Below the pieces are notes generated by a model. The model saw only the letters and a program-made list of their open reading frames with translations. It was not told the DNA's origin and ran no database searches. This document shows positions 576 to 8,542 of a stretch of 64,000 nucleotides of DNA, in pieces. Each line of letters starts with the position of its first letter. Position 1 is the first letter of the stretch. The translations under genes and the position numbers were made by a program. This DNA comes from a bacterium (GTDB lineage Bacteria > UBA8248): positions 4,032,001 to 4,096,000 of the forward strand of contig CBDBZU010000004.1 in assembly GCA_965213625.1 (NCBI GenBank). Direction: 5' to 3'.

Positions 576-588
<13 letters not shown>
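393..588. mobile_element. MITE-like element with terminal inverted repeats, carrying a GTAG-type REP-like pair
   Basis: GGGGGTTGTTGAAAATCCCC (393-412) vs GGGCTTTTTCAACAATCCCCC (568-588); internal GTAGGGGCCGCATACATGCGGCCC (438-461) and GTCGGACATATATGTCCGACCTAC (491-514). Confidence 0.65.
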
Positions 589-2408
<1,820 letters not shown>

Positions 2409-2580
2409 CGTCCCCTCCTTCGGGGAGGCAAGCGGCTGGTTCAACGGCGGGCGCCTCTTCAACAAAATGGGCGCCACGGCCCGAGCATACCAAATCCGCA
2501 GGCCCAGGTGAATTTCATCGGGCCATCAGGGAGGAAGGCTATCAAGTCAGGGGAGTTGGAGGGTCTTAAATGTAAGCGAA

Positions 2581-3129
2581 TCACCAGACGCCGCTGCTCG
2601 CTTCCAGCAAATGCGGATTCGCGGTCAAAATGGATAAGTCTGATTGCTTGAAATCGATGTCGTGCGTCACGAGCGTGAGGCCCTCTTTCCGGCACAACTG
2701 CGCGATCACCTGGTCGTTGAAATCGGAATGGCCGGCGCCATAGGCGTTCATCATCTCGTCGATCCGCAGCGATTCGAAACCGCTCGCCATCTGTTCGCAC
2801 TGGCTCGTCACCAGCCTGACGTCATGGGCGATTTCCGCGGCGAGCGACTCGAACTCCCCGCTCCTGCGGAAATACTTGAAATCCTTGATGTCGGGCCTGC
2901 GGCTACGCCACTCGCGCCTGGCGTAGGCGTTGATGAACTCCGAAACCACAAGCACGTCGATGTGGATGCGGCTCCTCGCCTCGTGGATGTCTCTCAGCGC
3001 CTGGGAGTAGACCTCCACCTGGCGAGTGGCCTTCGGCCGCTGTGGAATATAGATGTACCACCAGACGTTGGTGTCGAGGAACAACCGATCCTCGGGTGTG
3101 AACGTGTATTGCCGCACGTCACGCGTCAT
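2581..3129 (-). CDS. PIN-domain (VapC-like) nuclease
   Basis: FLDTNVW, SEF, SDFND, VTHDIDF acidic PIN tetrad; RBS GAGGAGG before MTRDV. Confidence 0.85.
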   Translation of the reverse strand: MTRDVRQYTFTPEDRLFLDTNVWWYIYIPQRPKATRQVEVYSQALRDIHEARSRIHIDVLVVSEFINAYARREWRSRRPDIKDFKYFRRSGEFESLAAEIAHDVRLVTSQCEQMASGFESLRIDEMMNAYGAGHSDFNDQVIAQLCRKEGLTLVTHDIDFKQSDLSILTANPHLLEASSGVW

Positions 3130-3325
3130 CGTCGCCCTCCTCATGCGTGTCGCGGCTCGCCCCCCCGAACCTGCTTGAGTCCTTACATGAATGCGCCACC
3201 ACGAATCGGCGGCCGGGAACAGGCGATCCTCATGGGTTTAATGTTTATTGCCGAACGTCATGCGTCTGCGTCGTCCTCCTCCAGGGCGTCGCGGCTCGCC
3301 AGCTCGAATCTCTCCGGGTCCTTGA
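3078..3325. repeat. Diverged tandem duplication (~139-bp period) of the STAS 3' end / PIN 5' end junction
   Basis: Minus-strand GAGGACGACGCAGACGCATGACGTTCGGCAAT aligns ungapped to GAGGGCGACGATGACGCGTGACGTGCGGCAAT; GTCGCGGCTCGCC at 3149-3161 and 3288-3300. Confidence 0.8.
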
Positions 3326-3629
3326 AGTAGCGCTTGGCCGTTTCGACGACGCGCTTGAGCAGCGCTGCGTCCTCGGGCTCCATATCCACAACGCTCACCG
3401 AGGAGCGAATCCGCTCTTCCGAGAATTTTCCGTACAACTGGCCGATGGCCGTGTTCAGGAAAGCCGAGGTCAGCATGTCGACGTTGTGGAACGAGAGCGC
3501 CGCGCCGTGTTCTTCGCCGAGCACCGACGCCAAGCGTTCATATACCTTCTGGCCATCGCCGGAAGCGACGCAAAGAGGACTGCCCACCACTTCGAAGACG
3601 GATATGGCGATATCCTTGCGCATCATCAT
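3258..3629 (-). CDS. STAS-like domain protein (DUF4325-like)
   Basis: ~123 aa, G(D)GQKVYE..LSFHNVDMLTSAFLNTAIGQL pattern of STAS-like anti-anti-sigma fold; RBS GAGAGGGG. Confidence 0.75.
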   Translation of the reverse strand: MMMRKDIAISVFEVVGSPLCVASGDGQKVYERLASVLGEEHGAALSFHNVDMLTSAFLNTAIGQLYGKFSEERIRSSVSVVDMEPEDAALLKRVVETAKRYFKDPERFELASRDALEEDDADA

Positions 3630-3637
3630 CCCCTCTC

Positions 3638-4510
3638 TCAGAAAATATCGTCGGTGCTCACCTCGGCGGCGAGCTTGTATGCGCCCGCGTCCGAGGTGTC
3701 GACTTCCAGGCTCACCGCGGTGCCCGGAAACGGGTGGGCGAGCGCCGCGGTGGAGACGCAAGCTCCCTTCTTCTCCCAGTACCCGCCGTCGGACACGATG
3801 CGGATGCAGCCGCCGTTCGCCTCGATGAACTCGCATAGCAGCTTCAAGCCCAGCCCGCCCGGCACGCCTGCGCGCTTGGTGGTGTTGTGCTCCTCGGTCG
3901 CCCAGACGATCGCGTCCACCGAGCCCAGGCTGTGGCCCATGCGGTCCCTGATGTTGCGCCGCATGCCGACGCCCAAGTCGGTCACCATGAAGTCGAAGCG
4001 CTCGAGTTCCGGAAAGAATTGCCCGCAGCTGAATATGCCGAGCCGGGTGTCGGAATGCAGCACGGCGTTGCTGAATATCTCAAAGATGCTCTCGCGGAAT
4101 TTTTTCACCAGACGCGGCGGCATATCGGGTAGCCCGGGTCGATCGATGAGTTCGCGTTCGATGTAGCCCGAGAAATGGTGATCATCGCGCACGTCGAAGC
4201 GCCTGTATGAGACGGCCGCCCCCCAGGAGTCGGGCAGCTTCGCGCGCCCGTAATGGCTCAAGAACCCGTTTCTGGAGAGTGTTTCCGCCACCTCGCCGCC
4301 AACGCCCGTGAGACGCACCGTGTTCAGCTTGCGCCCCAACTCGTAGAGAATCGCGCCCAGGGCCGCGCACATATCGGCCTCGAAATACGCCGCTCCCTCC
4401 AGGTCGACCTCGACCTCTTCGAGATAGCAATCCTTCGTCTGCGCATGAAGGCTCGCCAGCGCGTCGAAACTCTGGTGATCGTGACGGATCTCCGGCAGGG
4501 AATATCTCAC
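3638..4510 (-). CDS. HATPase_c (anti-sigma-kinase-like) ATP-binding protein with N-terminal STAS-like region
   Basis: N-box EIFSNAVLHS, G1 DLGVGM, G2 GGLGL, C-terminal FPGTAVSL. Confidence 0.8.
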   Translation of the reverse strand: MRYSLPEIRHDHQSFDALASLHAQTKDCYLEEVEVDLEGAAYFEADMCAALGAILYELGRKLNTVRLTGVGGEVAETLSRNGFLSHYGRAKLPDSWGAAVSYRRFDVRDDHHFSGYIERELIDRPGLPDMPPRLVKKFRESIFEIFSNAVLHSDTRLGIFSCGQFFPELERFDFMVTDLGVGMRRNIRDRMGHSLGSVDAIVWATEEHNTTKRAGVPGGLGLKLLCEFIEANGGCIRIVSDGGYWEKKGACVSTAALAHPFPGTAVSLEVDTSDAGAYKLAAEVSTDDIF

Positions 4511-4763
4511 GTCTTGACCTCGTGTCGCGGTCGGAATCCGCCAACAAAAAGCGGCGAACGGCCCGGTTCCGCGTGTGTCGCATGGACTTTTTCGTCCGGT
4601 ATTTCTCTCAGGTGAAGGTAAAACAGGGGGCGTGTTTTGTCCACGGGGGATTGAATAGAGGGAATTATCTCAGATTAGAGGACACCTGGAGGGCCGCCAC
4701 CCCCTCGCGTGGCCGAAGCCATACGGGTATTGCGAAATGCTTCCATTATGAGATAGATGACCA

Positions 4764-5828
4764 ATGACTGCCTTTCAACACGAACCGGCTCAGCGTGAAA
4801 TAGTCCACCAGTTAATCGACTGGAAGCGAGTTAAGAGTCGCTGTGAGTACTATCCAGCGATTGGGCGGACATTTCCAATAGAAATGCTAAAAGAACACAG
4901 CGATAATCCTCCATACTATTGCCATTATATGTCTTGGCGTCTCGGAACCTGGGAGGATGAATCTCAATTTGAACGCTTGGATGAATTGCTTTGTTGCGCC
5001 GAAGCTCTCCCTTGCTGGGAGCTTGAGAAAAGATCGTTGGTGGGTTCAGCAGATTTTGCCGAGTTTTGGTCGCTGATTTGGCAACTTCAAGTCGCAGAGC
5101 ATCTCTGCCAGGTCGGAACGGATGTGTGCTGGGCTGCATCTGGCCCAGACTTGTCTGTAAAGGTAGGTGACGAACAATGGTACGTGGAATGTTACACGCC
5201 CCGCAAATCTTTTGTATTGCTAAATTTCTTTGAAGAGCTTCTCCAAAAATACAATTCGGACATCCATGTCTATTACGACCTGTGTTTACCATTTCAACTA
5301 CCAAGGGACTCCGATCGGGAGCCATTTCTTCATGAAGTGATAAGCCGAGCTTGTGATCCTAATAACCTAGCCAAGGCAAAGGCTAAAGCAAAGCAAGAGT
5401 ATCCCGTGCCTCTGTATAAACACTCGGAAAGTTCATTATATGTATATATGGTGGGTAATAACCCCGAAGCATATACGCCTAGAACCGCCCCCAATCAGAC
5501 CGGCAATCCTAAGTTCTACATTGAGCAAGCTTTGAAAGAAGCAATCAATGCGAAGAAAGACTCGAATGCCTTGGCAGAGCATCGTCCTAATTTACTCGCG
5601 GTTAATTTCCTGCTCAGTACTGATTGGCAGTTAGCAGAGATGTTGCCGGTGCGGTTGAAATGTTTGGCCCTTCCCAAGATTGACCCCAACATAGACGCAC
5701 TTGCAGTTTCCGCAGTCGGGATTGACGAGCGATTGGACAAGGAAAAACTTAAGGTAAGGGTTCGGTCTAAACAAGTTGAGGATAGCTCCTTGAACCGAAT
5801 TGCAAGCTATCCCCACACAACCGAATAG
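4764..5828 (+). CDS. Hypothetical protein, possible PD-(D/E)XK-like nuclease fold
   Basis: 354-aa ORF, visibly AT-richer than flanks; GPDLSVKVGDEQWYVECY resembles a PD...(D/E)XK-type motif. Confidence 0.5.
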   Translation: MTAFQHEPAQREIVHQLIDWKRVKSRCEYYPAIGRTFPIEMLKEHSDNPPYYCHYMSWRLGTWEDESQFERLDELLCCAEALPCWELEKRSLVGSADFAEFWSLIWQLQVAEHLCQVGTDVCWAASGPDLSVKVGDEQWYVECYTPRKSFVLLNFFEELLQKYNSDIHVYYDLCLPFQLPRDSDREPFLHEVISRACDPNNLAKAKAKAKQEYPVPLYKHSESSLYVYMVGNNPEAYTPRTAPNQTGNPKFYIEQALKEAINAKKDSNALAEHRPNLLAVNFLLSTDWQLAEMLPVRLKCLALPKIDPNIDALAVSAVGIDERLDKEKLKVRVRSKQVEDSSLNRIASYPHTTE

Positions 5829-5950
5829 GGTTTATCTGTTAAGTGAGGAAAAAGACCCGCCACTTCTGCACATCCCCCTCCCCCTTGCGTATATCGCCCC
5901 GTTCGTTTTTAATGGGGCGATATCTTTTTCAACCCATTTCTGGAGCGATT

Positions 5951-6595
5951 ATGCGAGAAGCGGATGAATTCGACAGGCCGCCGGGCCCGCTGTTCGGGCT
6001 TTGGAGCGCGTTTTATATCGACAAGTGGCAGTTCATCAAGCGAAACCTCATGGGAGCCCGAAAAGAGCGTAAACAGGCGTTCCGCGACACCCTGAAGCCG
6101 GGCGACCCGATGCCGGACGTGCGCTTAAAGACCTCAGACGACGCCTCGTTCGACCTCTCCGATTTCAAGGGCAAGAAGAACATCGTCATCGAGTTCGGGG
6201 CCATCACGTGACCCCCCTATCGCCGGCAGGTGGCCGGCGTCGAGGATTTGCAGGATAAGTACAAGGATGAGGACGTGGTCTTCTTCGTCGTCTACTCCAA
6301 GGAACCCCACGCGGGGGAGACGCGCCATTTCAAGAAGTACGCGCAGCACGAGACGTATGAGCACAAGAAACAGTACGCGCAGGAGATGGTGACGGAATTC
6401 GGGATGAAGGTGCCCGTGCTCATCGACGACCTGGACGAGAGCGTCGTGCACGCCTTCGGGCGCATGCCGAACATGACGTTTATCGTGGATAAGGAAGGCA
6501 AGATCGCCTACAAATCCGACTGGATGGAGGCTCCGCGCATCGAGGAGTTGCTCGACAAATTGCTGGCCGAGCAGACGGAGACGGCGACCGCCTAG
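5951..6595 (+). CDS. Iodothyronine-deiodinase-like / Prx-fold selenoprotein (in-frame TGA 6209-6211 = Sec)
   Basis: Read-through gives EFGAIT-U-PPYRRQV..VVYSKEPH..PVLIDD..GKIAYK, collinear with deiodinase FGSCTUPxF and YxxExH motifs; RBS GGAG before ATG 5951. Confidence 0.85.
6221..6239 (+). promoter_or_regulatory. Bacterial SECIS-like hairpin
   Basis: CGCCGGC-AGGTG-GCCGGCG, perfect 7-bp stem with a G/U-containing loop, starting 9 nt after the UGA. Confidence 0.75.
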
Positions 6596-6701
6596 ACGTG
6601 AGCCTAAGGTTACGCCCCGCAAGCGGGGGCGAGCAAAACGATACAAGGATATACGGGCGGCCCATGCGGCGGGTCGCCCTTTTCCGTACGCATCGCGAAG
6701 G

Positions 6702-7811
6702 ATGAGAAACTTGACCTCCACCGAATACGCATGGTTTCTGCCGACGGGAAGATACGGCGACGGGCACACCATCAACGCCAAAACGCCCGAGCGTCCCCCG
6801 ACGGTGGAGTATATCTCTGAAGTCGCGCGCGCGGCGGAAGAGGCGAGCTTCGTGAACCTCCTCGTGCCGACGGGAACGCATTGTCTGGACGCCTGGATGA
6901 TCACCCTGGCCGTGGCGCAGCGTACCGGACGAATCAAGTTCTGCGTGGCCTTCCGCCCCGGGCTTTCGAGTCCCGTGCTCACCGCCCAGCAGGCGAACAC
7001 GTATGACGCCGTAACGGGCGGGCGGCTCACGGTGAACGTGGTGACGGGCTCGACGCCGGTGGATCAGAGGCGCTACGGCGATCACCTCGACCACGCGGAG
7101 CGCTACGCGCGGACGGAAGAGTTCCTGGACGTCGTGAAGGCGCTCTGGACGAGCGATGAGCCGGTGAGCTATTCGGGCAAGTATTACCAGGTCGAGAACG
7201 CCACGCTGTACGCCGAGCCCGTCTCGAAGCCCCATCCCACGATTTTCCTGGGCGGCAGTTCCGAAGCGGGCCGCCGCGTGGGCACCAAGCACGCCGACGT
7301 GCACATGATGTGGGCGGTAGCGCCGGAGCAAGTCGCCGAGGACGCCGCGGACATGCGACGCCGCGCGGAGGAAGTCGGGCGCGACGACCTTCGCTTCGGC
7401 TTGCGCCTCCACGTGATGTGCCGTGAGACCCAGAAAGAAGCCCGACGCGCCGCGGAGGCGCTTTTAGAGGACAGCGCGCTCGAGAACACGCGGATGTGGG
7501 CCGACCAGCGAAACTTATCCGAGAGCGAAGGACAGCGCCGCATGAACGAGTTGTATGAGGGCGGCTCCCCCTGGCTCACAGATACCCTCTGGATGGGCGT
7601 GAACAAGGTGCGCTCGGGCGCGGCGGCCATGCTGGTCGGCACGCCGGACATGCTGGCCGCGGCGCTCAAGGAATACGTGGACCTTGGCGTCCGCAACTTC
7701 ATCCTCTCGGGCTGGCCGCATCTCGAGGAAGCCGAGATATTCGGGCGCGAGGTGATGCCGCTCCTGGCGGACACGAACCCTGCGCGGCTCGACTCGCAAC
7801 CGGTCGCCTAG
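6702..7811 (+). CDS. Luciferase-like (LLM) flavin-dependent monooxygenase, SsuD-like
   Basis: WFLPT, LLVPTG, LDAW, KFCVAFRPG, GGRLTVNVVTG, FLGGSSEAG, LVGTPD, FILSGWPHLEEAE. Confidence 0.9.
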   Translation: MRNLTSTEYAWFLPTGRYGDGHTINAKTPERPPTVEYISEVARAAEEASFVNLLVPTGTHCLDAWMITLAVAQRTGRIKFCVAFRPGLSSPVLTAQQANTYDAVTGGRLTVNVVTGSTPVDQRRYGDHLDHAERYARTEEFLDVVKALWTSDEPVSYSGKYYQVENATLYAEPVSKPHPTIFLGGSSEAGRRVGTKHADVHMMWAVAPEQVAEDAADMRRRAEEVGRDDLRFGLRLHVMCRETQKEARRAAEALLEDSALENTRMWADQRNLSESEGQRRMNELYEGGSPWLTDTLWMGVNKVRSGAAAMLVGTPDMLAAALKEYVDLGVRNFILSGWPHLEEAEIFGREVMPLLADTNPARLDSQPVA

Positions 7812-7852: not shown

Positions 7853-8542
7853 ATGAACTACCGCGTCTTCGACACCTCTGAAATCGACCACTCGCAGATT
7901 TACCGGCTCCTCATCGGCTCGGTCGTTCCCCGGCCCATCGCCTGGGTGAGCACGATGAGTGCGGACGGCGTCGCGAACCTTGCGCCCTTCAGCTTCTTCA
8001 CCATGGTGTCGCACCAGCCGCCGATGGCGTCGATTTCCGTCGGCGAGCGCGAGAACAAGCCGAAGGACACCGCGCGCAACATTCTTGACACCAAGGGCTA
8101 CGTGATCCACACGGTGGTGAACGGCTGGGAGGAGGCGATGAACGTATGCGCGGGCAACTTCGCCCCCGATGAGAGCGAGTTCGAGGCGGCGGGTCTCGAC
8201 ATGGTCCCCGCAGACCTGGTGGACGCGCCCCGCATCAAGGACGCGCCGGTGGCGATGGAGTGCCGCCTCGAGCGCATGATTCCCTTTGGGGACGAGTGGG
8301 TGACGCACCTCGTCATCGGAGAGGTGCTGCGCTGGCACGTGCGCGAGGATTTGATACTGACCGACGAGGAGAAGATATACATCGACCCCGCGAAGCTCCA
8401 GCCCGTGGGCAGGCTGGGCGGCCCCCGGTACTGCCGCACGCAGGACATCTTCGAGATGCAGGCCCCCTACATCCAGCCCGACAGGGTGCACCCCAACGAC
8501 CCCGCGCAGAACGACGTCCAGCCGGTGAAAAAGGGTTCCTGA
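7853..8542 (+). CDS. Flavin reductase family protein (DIM6/NTAB)
   Basis: VVPRPIAWVST, NLAPFSFF, KDTARNI, PVAMECRL, PVGRLGG. Confidence 0.9.
   Translation: MNYRVFDTSEIDHSQIYRLLIGSVVPRPIAWVSTMSADGVANLAPFSFFTMVSHQPPMASISVGERENKPKDTARNILDTKGYVIHTVVNGWEEAMNVCAGNFAPDESEFEAAGLDMVPADLVDAPRIKDAPVAMECRLERMIPFGDEWVTHLVIGEVLRWHVREDLILTDEEKIYIDPAKLQPVGRLGGPRYCRTQDIFEMQAPYIQPDRVHPNDPAQNDVQPVKKGS

Follow-up and report, generated by a model that had tools for sequence, protein, structure and literature searches.

A predicted cysteine-free selenoprotein of the deiodinase branch, encoded across a conserved in-frame UGA in a bacterium of the UBA8248 lineage

Deiodinase-like selenoproteins of bacteria were first reported in 2005, when Zhang, Fomenko, and Gladyshev described four selenocysteine (Sec)- and six cysteine (Cys)-containing sequences from the Sargasso Sea, with bacterial Sec insertion sequence (SECIS) elements and a function given as unknown (PMC1088965). 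Reviews from 2022 and 2026 list a bacterial deiodinase-like family with the motif UxxC (PMC9312934; PMC13188914), and most bacterial selenoproteins with a thioredoxin fold are regarded as redox or antioxidant proteins (PMC1088965; PMC13188914). The present study concerns a gene at positions 5951–6595 of a 64,000-nucleotide stretch of DNA (hereafter the window) from a bacterium of the GTDB lineage UBA8248 (GCA_965213625.1, contig CBDBZU010000004.1, positions 4,032,001 to 4,096,000); the window is part of contig 4 (C4) of a 4.15-Mb assembly. An earlier note on this DNA, made from its letters alone, had proposed a hidden selenoprotein here, of a kind already predicted in bacteria but functionally obscure, a description that the literature since 2005 bears out. 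The TGA at codon 87 almost certainly encodes Sec, because the genome carries the Sec machinery, the TGA is kept in homologs, both halves of the gene evolve as coding sequence, the hairpin that follows shows compensated changes, and distant relatives carry Cys at the same position. This establishes a Sec gene as far as sequence evidence allows, and from it we infer Sec insertion itself. The product is very probably a soluble, cysteine-free Sec enzyme of 214 residues, belonging to the deiodinase branch of the thioredoxin-fold superfamily; the deiodinase-type chemistry proposed for it below is less certain.

As in the described prokaryotic deiodinase-like family (PF00837), the UGA of the window gene falls in frame at the active site of deiodinases, a SECIS-like element with a G in its small loop comes just downstream, Cys homologs exist, and the function is presumed to be redox. 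The host genome holds three paralogs, of which the window gene is A; paralog B (C4:3307859–3308497, reverse strand) and paralog C (C4:2636299–2636904, reverse strand) are 61% and 43% identical to A, and each has its own TGA and hairpin. Where the reviews give UxxC, the clade described here has U-P-P-[YFTS] and, in paralogs A and B, no Cys at all. Particular to this clade are U-P-P-[YF] as in the animal enzymes, cysteine-free paralogs A and B, no export signal, three paralogs per genome, and no Cys variant, a contrast drawn from the published family description.

The main elements of the gene are as follows.

5891–5923, forward strand: terminator-like hairpin with a T-run, closing the upstream unit (13 pairs, loop of 7, tail CTTTTT)
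5942–5945, forward strand: Shine-Dalgarno-like GGAG, 5 nucleotides (nt) 5′ of the ATG, read from the sequence
5951–6595, forward strand: putative deiodinase-like selenoprotein coding sequence of 214 codons, with a TAG stop at 6593–6595
6209–6211, forward strand: TGA codon 87, read as Sec (T86-U87-P88-P89-Y90)
6221–6239, forward strand: SECIS-like hairpin, stem 6221–6227 with 6233–6239, loop AGGUG at 6228–6232
6293–6310, forward strand: Y115-S-K-E118-P-H120, corresponding to the deiodinase Y-x-x-E-x-H part of the relay (aligned with Dio2 Tyr157, Glu160, and His162)
6347–6349, forward strand: His133, invariant in our alignment (A3) and aligned to Dio2 His182
6655–6679, forward strand: terminator-like hairpin with TTTT 3′ of the stop (9 pairs, 8 of them G-C)

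Two open reading frames (ORFs), at 5843–6211 and 6230–6595, lie in one frame with their starts 387 nt apart and a single TGA (6209–6211) between them. With this TGA read as U, translation from the ATG at 5951 yields 214 residues (...KKNIVIEFGAIT-U-PPYRRQVAG...), with the motif FGAIT-U-PPY around codon 87 and YSKEPH at residues 115–120. The earlier note had claimed the shared frame with its lone TGA, the read-through motif, the YSKEPH form of Y-x-x-E-x-H, and a perfect hairpin 9 nt 3′ of the TGA; re-reading of the frame and coordinates recovered all four. The region 5951–6595 is therefore one gene with a single in-frame TGA. Its start appears firmly to be the ATG at 5951 and not the GTG at 5843, because GGAG stands 5 nt upstream, because a terminator-like hairpin (5891–5923) precedes it, and because the aligned Met is the start in all orthologs; the hairpin falls inside the spurious extension of the first ORF to GTG 5843. 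The GTG that opens the "second ORF" (6230) lies within the loop of the SECIS-like hairpin. The gene looks monocistronic, since a terminator-like hairpin (6655–6679) comes after its TAG stop.

Conservation of the TGA was assessed in three ways. A six-frame search of 41 genomes (the host genome and 40 relatives) returned matches in 38, and the in-frame TGA was present at each of the 80 near-full-length places (E 1.8e-39 or better). Script inspection of 57 sequences (55 loci and the two further paralogs of the host) read G-[AS]-[IVL]-T-U-P-P-[YFTS]-R-R-Q-[VL] in 51; TGA is present in 54, comprising these 51 canonical cases, one T-U-A-P, and two broken copies, and the other three are unrelated weak matches. 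A pattern scan with one genome per species found 92 relatives, of which 80 loci were retained, from named metagenome-assembled genomes (MAGs), with TGA at the site in 78 and Cys in none; one of the two exceptions is a script artifact at a locus whose ortholog had already been counted, and the other is a partial match. The titles of the 80-locus records name MAGs of Nitrospinota/Nitrospinaceae, Tectomicrobia, Acidimicrobiia, Acidobacteriota, Binatia, Verrucomicrobiales, and Chthoniobacterales. No Cys form was seen among close relatives of the clade, which cover several phyla, and no ortholog of paralogs A and B contains any Cys. Two broken extra copies occur in relatives, one interrupted between the halves (L068, G030:C6:193854–196052) and one frameshifted after the EPH motif (L069, G033:C1:92518–93333); the TGA is kept in both.

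All 20 orthologs from the genus have TGA as codon 87, and the variable columns at first, second, and third codon positions number 27/17/63 before the TGA and 29/21/83 after it. Because variation concentrates at third positions on each side of the TGA, both halves are evidently translated in one frame and under purifying selection.

Database proteins reflect this gene mostly in pieces. In a collection of 5.8 billion proteins, 44 of 46 strong matches are half-length fragments, as expected from the earlier note's claim that standard annotation splits such a gene. Ordinary gene callers cut the window gene in two and presumably do the same to paralogs B and C, and at least 44 entries for close relatives have been cut likewise; the already large selenoproteome of this lineage would thus be undercounted wherever UGA is left unchecked. 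The two full-length entries have G (P0001) and W (P0003) at the codon-87 site, which probably represent TGA printed under NCBI translation tables 25 and 4, as judged from the protein records. An exhaustive profile-free search returned 3,032 relatives, 593 of them at E 1e-10 or better. Among the best 149 of the 3,032, the motif was recognized by script in 83, of which 71 have Cys at the site; a few distant relatives among these 149 have W, G, or R. The residue facing the TGA in homologs, which the earlier note had named as a check, is thus TGA-encoded in the close relatives and most often Cys in the distant ones. Both results that would have told against the proposal in that note, a genome lacking Sec machinery and homologs with a non-Cys residue here, were looked for, and both checks favored a selenoprotein.

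The nearest full-length relatives (35%–41% identity) read T-C-P-P-A-R, with Cys aligned to U87; for P0069 this alignment was obtained by BLASTP at 40% identity. These Cys-type bacterial deiodinase-family proteins (P0069, P0072, and members of NF038285) share that identity over the catalytic domain and have Y-S-R-E-R/P-H, but differ from the window protein in having T-C-P-P for T-U-P-P and in being secreted or membrane-anchored, with a hydrophobic N-terminal segment. Some of them score below the Pfam deiodinase cut-off (24–25 bits).

The Sec machinery, the other of these checks, was located in full in the host genome: selA (E 1.2e-151) and selB (78 bits), both free of internal stops; selD (333 bits), with one in-frame TGA at the classical G-G-U-G-S-K position; and a tRNA-SeC with anticodon TCA (75.9 bits, also found by ARAGORN). 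UGA otherwise serves as a stop in this genome: the flavin reductase gene 1.3 kb downstream terminates with TGA, as do 9,169 open frames of at least 100 codons. The selD gene (C4:1518852–1519814, forward strand; locus L005) has a small hairpin, GGUCC-GGA-GGACC, 14 nt after its UGA. The SelB winged-helix match is doubled, with equal scores at C4:265–405 and C4:185022–185162; the first lies within the opening 405 bases of the contig, and either a circular assembly with its end repeated or an artifact of assembly may account for the duplication. In one relative, a deiodinase-like gene (L120:3001–3606) has the convergently oriented selB and selA as immediate neighbors, and a nearby AIR-synthase-family gene may be selD-like.

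The lineage has been noted for its selenoproteins. In BSepDB, MAGs labeled Nitrospinota (GTDB UBA8248) rank with the ten bacteria richest in selenoproteins, having 54, 50, and 48 such genes, and the accessible main text makes no mention of deiodinase (PMC13326102). One MAG listed there, FO_M_Nitrospinota_01, supplies three of the loci used here, and these genes may already stand in the BSepDB tables.

The SECIS-like hairpin consists of a perfect 7-bp stem (CGCCGGC/GCCGGCG) closing the loop AGGTG, begins after a 9-nt spacer from the TGA, and overlaps codons R91-R92-Q93-V94-A95-G96. As a background, perfect hairpins of at least 7 bp starting 6–20 nt after a TGA were counted across the genome; they follow 1,248 of 122,747 TGA trinucleotides (1.0%) and 99 of the 9,169 TGAs (1.1%) that end open frames of at least 100 codons. 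The hairpin alone is thus roughly a 1-in-100 event, and its weight rests on conservation across genomes. The folding energy of the 71-nt stretch is not unusual against shuffled sequences (z = 0.11), so that only the local stem is notable. An Rfam scan of 5700–6800 (E up to 1) gave no matches, which is uninformative, as Rfam appears to have no bacterial SECIS model.

A stem-loop is predicted at the site in most of 51 folded homologs, the minimum-energy fold of some being different. Paralog A has a 7-bp stem with the loop AGGUG, and the other groups have 5–7 bp with AGGU or AGUU; loop position 2 is G in all sequences. Covariation was evaluated in 25 non-identical sequences of the non-A paralog groups, in which 80% of cells pair overall and almost every cell of the five innermost pairs does. 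A covariation score of 0.278 compares with 0.090 in shuffles (0 of 500 reach it), and three pairs vary on both sides (GC 9/CG 8/GU 7; CG 21/AU 4; GC 24/AU 1). Several of the paired changes are synonymous, as where Arg CGG has become AGG and the opposing Pro CCG has become CCU. Pairing thus appears to have been kept through compensatory changes, which is good but not conclusive support for a SECIS element.

Relatives occur in four RNA libraries, and no RNA run contains the exact strain. In X19, labeled as sponge metagenome, a 782-nt contig covers 5941–6669 at about 88% likeness and so includes the complete gene with its TGA; another contig of this library runs on into sequence matching paralog B. 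Contigs start at 5934 in X18 and X20 and at 5941 in X19, with adapter letters directly before the start in X19 and X20. These starts hint weakly that a transcript begins after the upstream terminator and before the ribosome-binding site. DNA runs labeled as sponge metagenome have shares of 0.24–0.30 and were not used as evidence of habitat.

The earlier note's assignment of the protein to a deiodinase-like branch of the peroxiredoxin (Prx)/thioredoxin fold holds by profile hidden Markov models, fold, and relay residues. The window protein passes three Pfam models, Redoxin (PF08534, 64.9 bits, cut-off 26.6), T4_deiodinase (PF00837, 58.3 bits, cut-off 27), and AhpC-TSA (PF00578, 51.4 bits, cut-off 26), and all three are matched by 22 of 22 aligned clade members. 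The NCBIfam model NF038285 ("deiodinase family protein") gives 97.1 bits against a cut-off of 250 and is matched only at positions 179–324 of 347, its C-terminal domain; paralogs B and C score 110.7 and 77.6 bits. Among PDB sequences, mouse Dio3 (4tr3, E 1.6e-7) matches best; a ResA-like protein comes next, and then mouse Dio2 (9h48). An AlphaFold model from a 22-sequence alignment predicts one domain (predicted local distance difference test [pLDDT] 86.9; predicted template modeling score [pTM] 0.86), for which the top Foldseek matches are ResA, Dio3, and Dio2; the two Dio chains lead both in query TM-score (0.62) and in alignment length (about 175 columns). The modeled fold is that of the Prx/TlpA/Dio thioredoxin group, with no finer assignment. 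Three N-terminal helices with a conserved R-P-P-G-P-L-x-G-L-W-S motif are predicted before the catalytic domain. The window protein shows no membrane segment or hydrophobic N-terminus (maximum Kyte-Doolittle 19-residue mean 0.61) and no signal peptide or other export signal.

The active site, rather than the fold, points to the deiodinases. The proton relay proposed for Dio2 comprises Ser127, Thr129, Tyr157, Glu160, His162, and His182 near Sec130 (PMC11592359). By alignment these map to A84, T86, Y115, E118, H120, and H133, so that five of the six residues are kept. T86, Y115, H120, and H133 are invariant in A3, and E118 is present in at least 90% of rows. The T, U, P, and P of the active-site motif are likewise invariant, with U placed by the model at the start of helix alpha-1. 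All 51 clade members have U-P-P-[YFTS]; with Y, F, T, or S at +3, they contain neither CxxC nor UxxC there. Invariant Arg is confined to R91 and R92, directly after the site.

Like vertebrate Dio1–3 (4TR3, Dio3; 9H48, Dio2), the window protein has a thioredoxin fold with an N-terminal beta-hairpin, G-x-x-T-U-P-P-[FY], a Tyr/Glu/His/His/Thr relay, and a Sec not replaced by Cys. It differs in its low identity to them (only 22%–24%), in lacking an N-terminal membrane anchor, in having Ala for the relay Ser, in a shorter loop-D insertion without the conserved Trp, and in having no proximal or distal Cys. The bacterial SECIS-like element lies inside the coding region and not in the 3′ untranslated region, and thyroid hormones are not the expected substrate here. 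With the 1-Cys peroxiredoxins (AhpE, 1XVW) the protein shares a single redox-active residue at the start of helix alpha-1, and with the TlpA/ResA oxidoreductases the same position of that residue, though it has no CxxC; it differs from both groups in the Thr adjacent to the redox residue and in the deiodinase relay.

On these data, a mechanism can be proposed. SelB with Sec-tRNA(Sec), recruited by the hairpin 9 nt after the UGA, would insert Sec at residue 87 in place of a stop. The U87 selenolate, at the start of helix alpha-1, would attack an electrophilic atom of a small substrate, and the relay of T86, Y115, E118, H120, and H133 would protonate the leaving group. Lacking any Cys, the protein would depend on thiols from outside, such as thioredoxin or a low-molecular-weight thiol, to reduce the selenenyl form thus produced (Se-X or Se-OH). 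As to the substrate, a peroxide or other redox compound comes close to an even prospect, and the removal of I or Br from a halogenated phenolic compound, as in the deiodinases, is plausible at somewhat less than that; the remainder falls to unknown substrates. The most specific mechanism, and the one to which we commit, is halogen abstraction of the deiodinase type, because the residues kept are specific to deiodinases and not to peroxiredoxins and because the clade never swaps Sec for Cys. The clade occurs in bacteria labeled Nitrospinota, and RNA libraries labeled as sponge metagenome contain close relatives of its gene. The stronger claim that the clade consists of true bacterial reductive dehalogenases, stripping Br or I from halogenated tyrosine-derived or phenolic compounds by the Se-halogen chemistry of the thyroid-hormone deiodinases, we regard as unlikely.

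Several observations weigh against parts of this reading. Redoxin (64.9 bits) scores slightly above T4_deiodinase (58.3 bits), and Pfam clan competition would label the protein Redoxin. The relay Ser127 of Dio2 corresponds to Ala84; the two His residues are separated by 12 residues, as against 19 in Dio2, and the conserved Trp of loop D is missing. The stem of the hairpin coincides with codons for an invariant peptide, R-R-Q-[VL], and for the two residues after it, so that its conservation is in part a protein constraint; kinship among the sequences inflates the shuffle control for covariation, and within the genus of the window the hairpin is nearly invariant and hence uninformative. The RNA-library contigs may contain DNA, come from relatives, and show neither level nor strand. 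No consistent functional partner was found across phyla, the neighbors in 13 diverse loci varying by lineage, and a literature search returned no experimental work (Se labeling or mass spectrometry) on any bacterial deiodinase-like protein.

The alternative that survives best is a Sec-dependent thiol peroxidase (a "1-Sec" peroxiredoxin or GPx-like enzyme), in which the selenolate would reduce H2O2 or organic hydroperoxides to give Se-OH, recycled by thioredoxin or a small thiol, and the likeness to Dio would reflect shared ancestry. This is a serious possibility, though we hold it to be less than even. It agrees with the Redoxin and AhpC-TSA scores, passed by all 22 aligned members, with Prx fold matches that are equally good, and with the general view of such proteins as redox or antioxidant enzymes taken in PMC1088965 and PMC13188914. 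No halogen-related genes were seen among the neighbors in the 13 diverse loci, which also suits a peroxidase. The sequence motifs of the clade argue the other way. Peroxiredoxins have PxxxTxxC spacing and a conserved catalytic Arg, and exchange of Sec and Cys is common in peroxidases. Here, Thr directly adjoins Sec (T-U-P-P), as in deiodinases and not as in the peroxiredoxin T-x-x-C; no Arg besides R91 and R92 is invariant in A3; the Y-x-x-E-x-H and His relay of deiodinases is kept; and the clade has no Cys form.

That the TGA is a true stop, separating two small genes (86 and 121 codons) or marking a decayed pseudogene, is highly improbable. Public gene calls, with 44 of 46 strong matches at half length, would fit such a reading, as would a second half starting at GTG 6230 and the interrupted and frameshifted copies (L068 and L069) in two relatives. 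Yet the same lone TGA, with no other stop or frameshift, recurs in 80 of 80 places over at least class-level distances with coding-type substitution on both sides; it falls exactly at the catalytic position of a confidently modeled single domain (pLDDT 86.9); GTG 6230 sits in the hairpin loop with no visible ribosome-binding site; and the full Sec machinery is present. Reading of UGA without selenium, whether near-cognate or suppressor decoding were to supply, for instance, Trp, Cys, or Gly or the organism had reassigned the codon, is equally improbable: W in P0003, G in P0001, and the W, G, or R of a few distant relatives would suit it, but the first two fit TGA as printed under NCBI tables 4 and 25 (a reading of protein records), UGA ends the flavin reductase gene and 9,169 long open frames, neither selA nor selB is interrupted by a stop, and tRNA-SeC, selA, selB, and selD are present, with selD itself using Sec at the classical position.

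The predicted Sec enzyme and its relatives are a convenient test case, being small, soluble, and single-domain, with most of the deiodinase relay and no Cys to confuse redox assays. Dehalogenase or peroxidase activity, if shown, would settle whether deiodinase chemistry predates animals. Were these proteins true dehalogenases, they would represent a free-living counterpart, and possibly an evolutionary source, of animal deiodination, as well as a cofactor-free aerobic route of dehalogenation distinct from the corrinoid reductive dehalogenases.

Two genes follow the deiodinase-like gene in the window.

6702–7811, forward strand: SsuD-like monooxygenase of the luciferase family (LLM), 331 bits, below the cut-off of 510 for alkanesulfonate monooxygenase
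7853–8542, forward strand: flavin reductase, ending in TGA

This pair lies downstream in 19 genus-level loci (both genes in 18; one cut at a contig end) and is absent from all of the 61 other loci. An operon of the deiodinase-like gene with the monooxygenase and flavin reductase was considered and rejected, as the synteny is confined to the genus and a gap of about 0.9 kb intervenes in several orthologs. Paralog B is located between genes for a GNAT acetyltransferase and an MFS transporter. A further arrangement of five genes recurs in Acidimicrobiia, Verrucomicrobiales, and Chthoniobacterales MAGs (L145, L148, and L151, about positions 1000–5200 of each), where one strand encodes an alpha/beta hydrolase and a GFO/IDH/MocA oxidoreductase and the opposite strand encodes the deiodinase-like selenoprotein together with an SDR and a cyclase-family protein, suggesting that a small-molecule pathway has been transferred.

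A 354-codon ORF (4764–5828, forward strand) lies upstream, between the selenoprotein gene and a HATPase-like gene, with 46.6% G+C against 61.3% for the window; it has no Pfam, NCBIfam, or PADLOC match and no match in 80 related loci. In a related locus (L088) the HATPase-like gene is only about 230 nt upstream of the selenoprotein gene. This ORF looks like a recent insertion. Beside it, a 633-residue AAA ATPase (576–2477, reverse strand) matches the PADLOC IetA models (E 1.9e-35), and a 290-residue protein (3638–4510, reverse strand) has a weak HATPase_c/DrmA-like match; the two may form a defense-type island next to the low-GC ORF. Finally, one locus recovered among the relatives (L070, G039:C55, reverse strand) contains a different thioredoxin-like candidate selenoprotein, which reads W-U-P-T-C (UxxC), with long open frames flanking its TGA.

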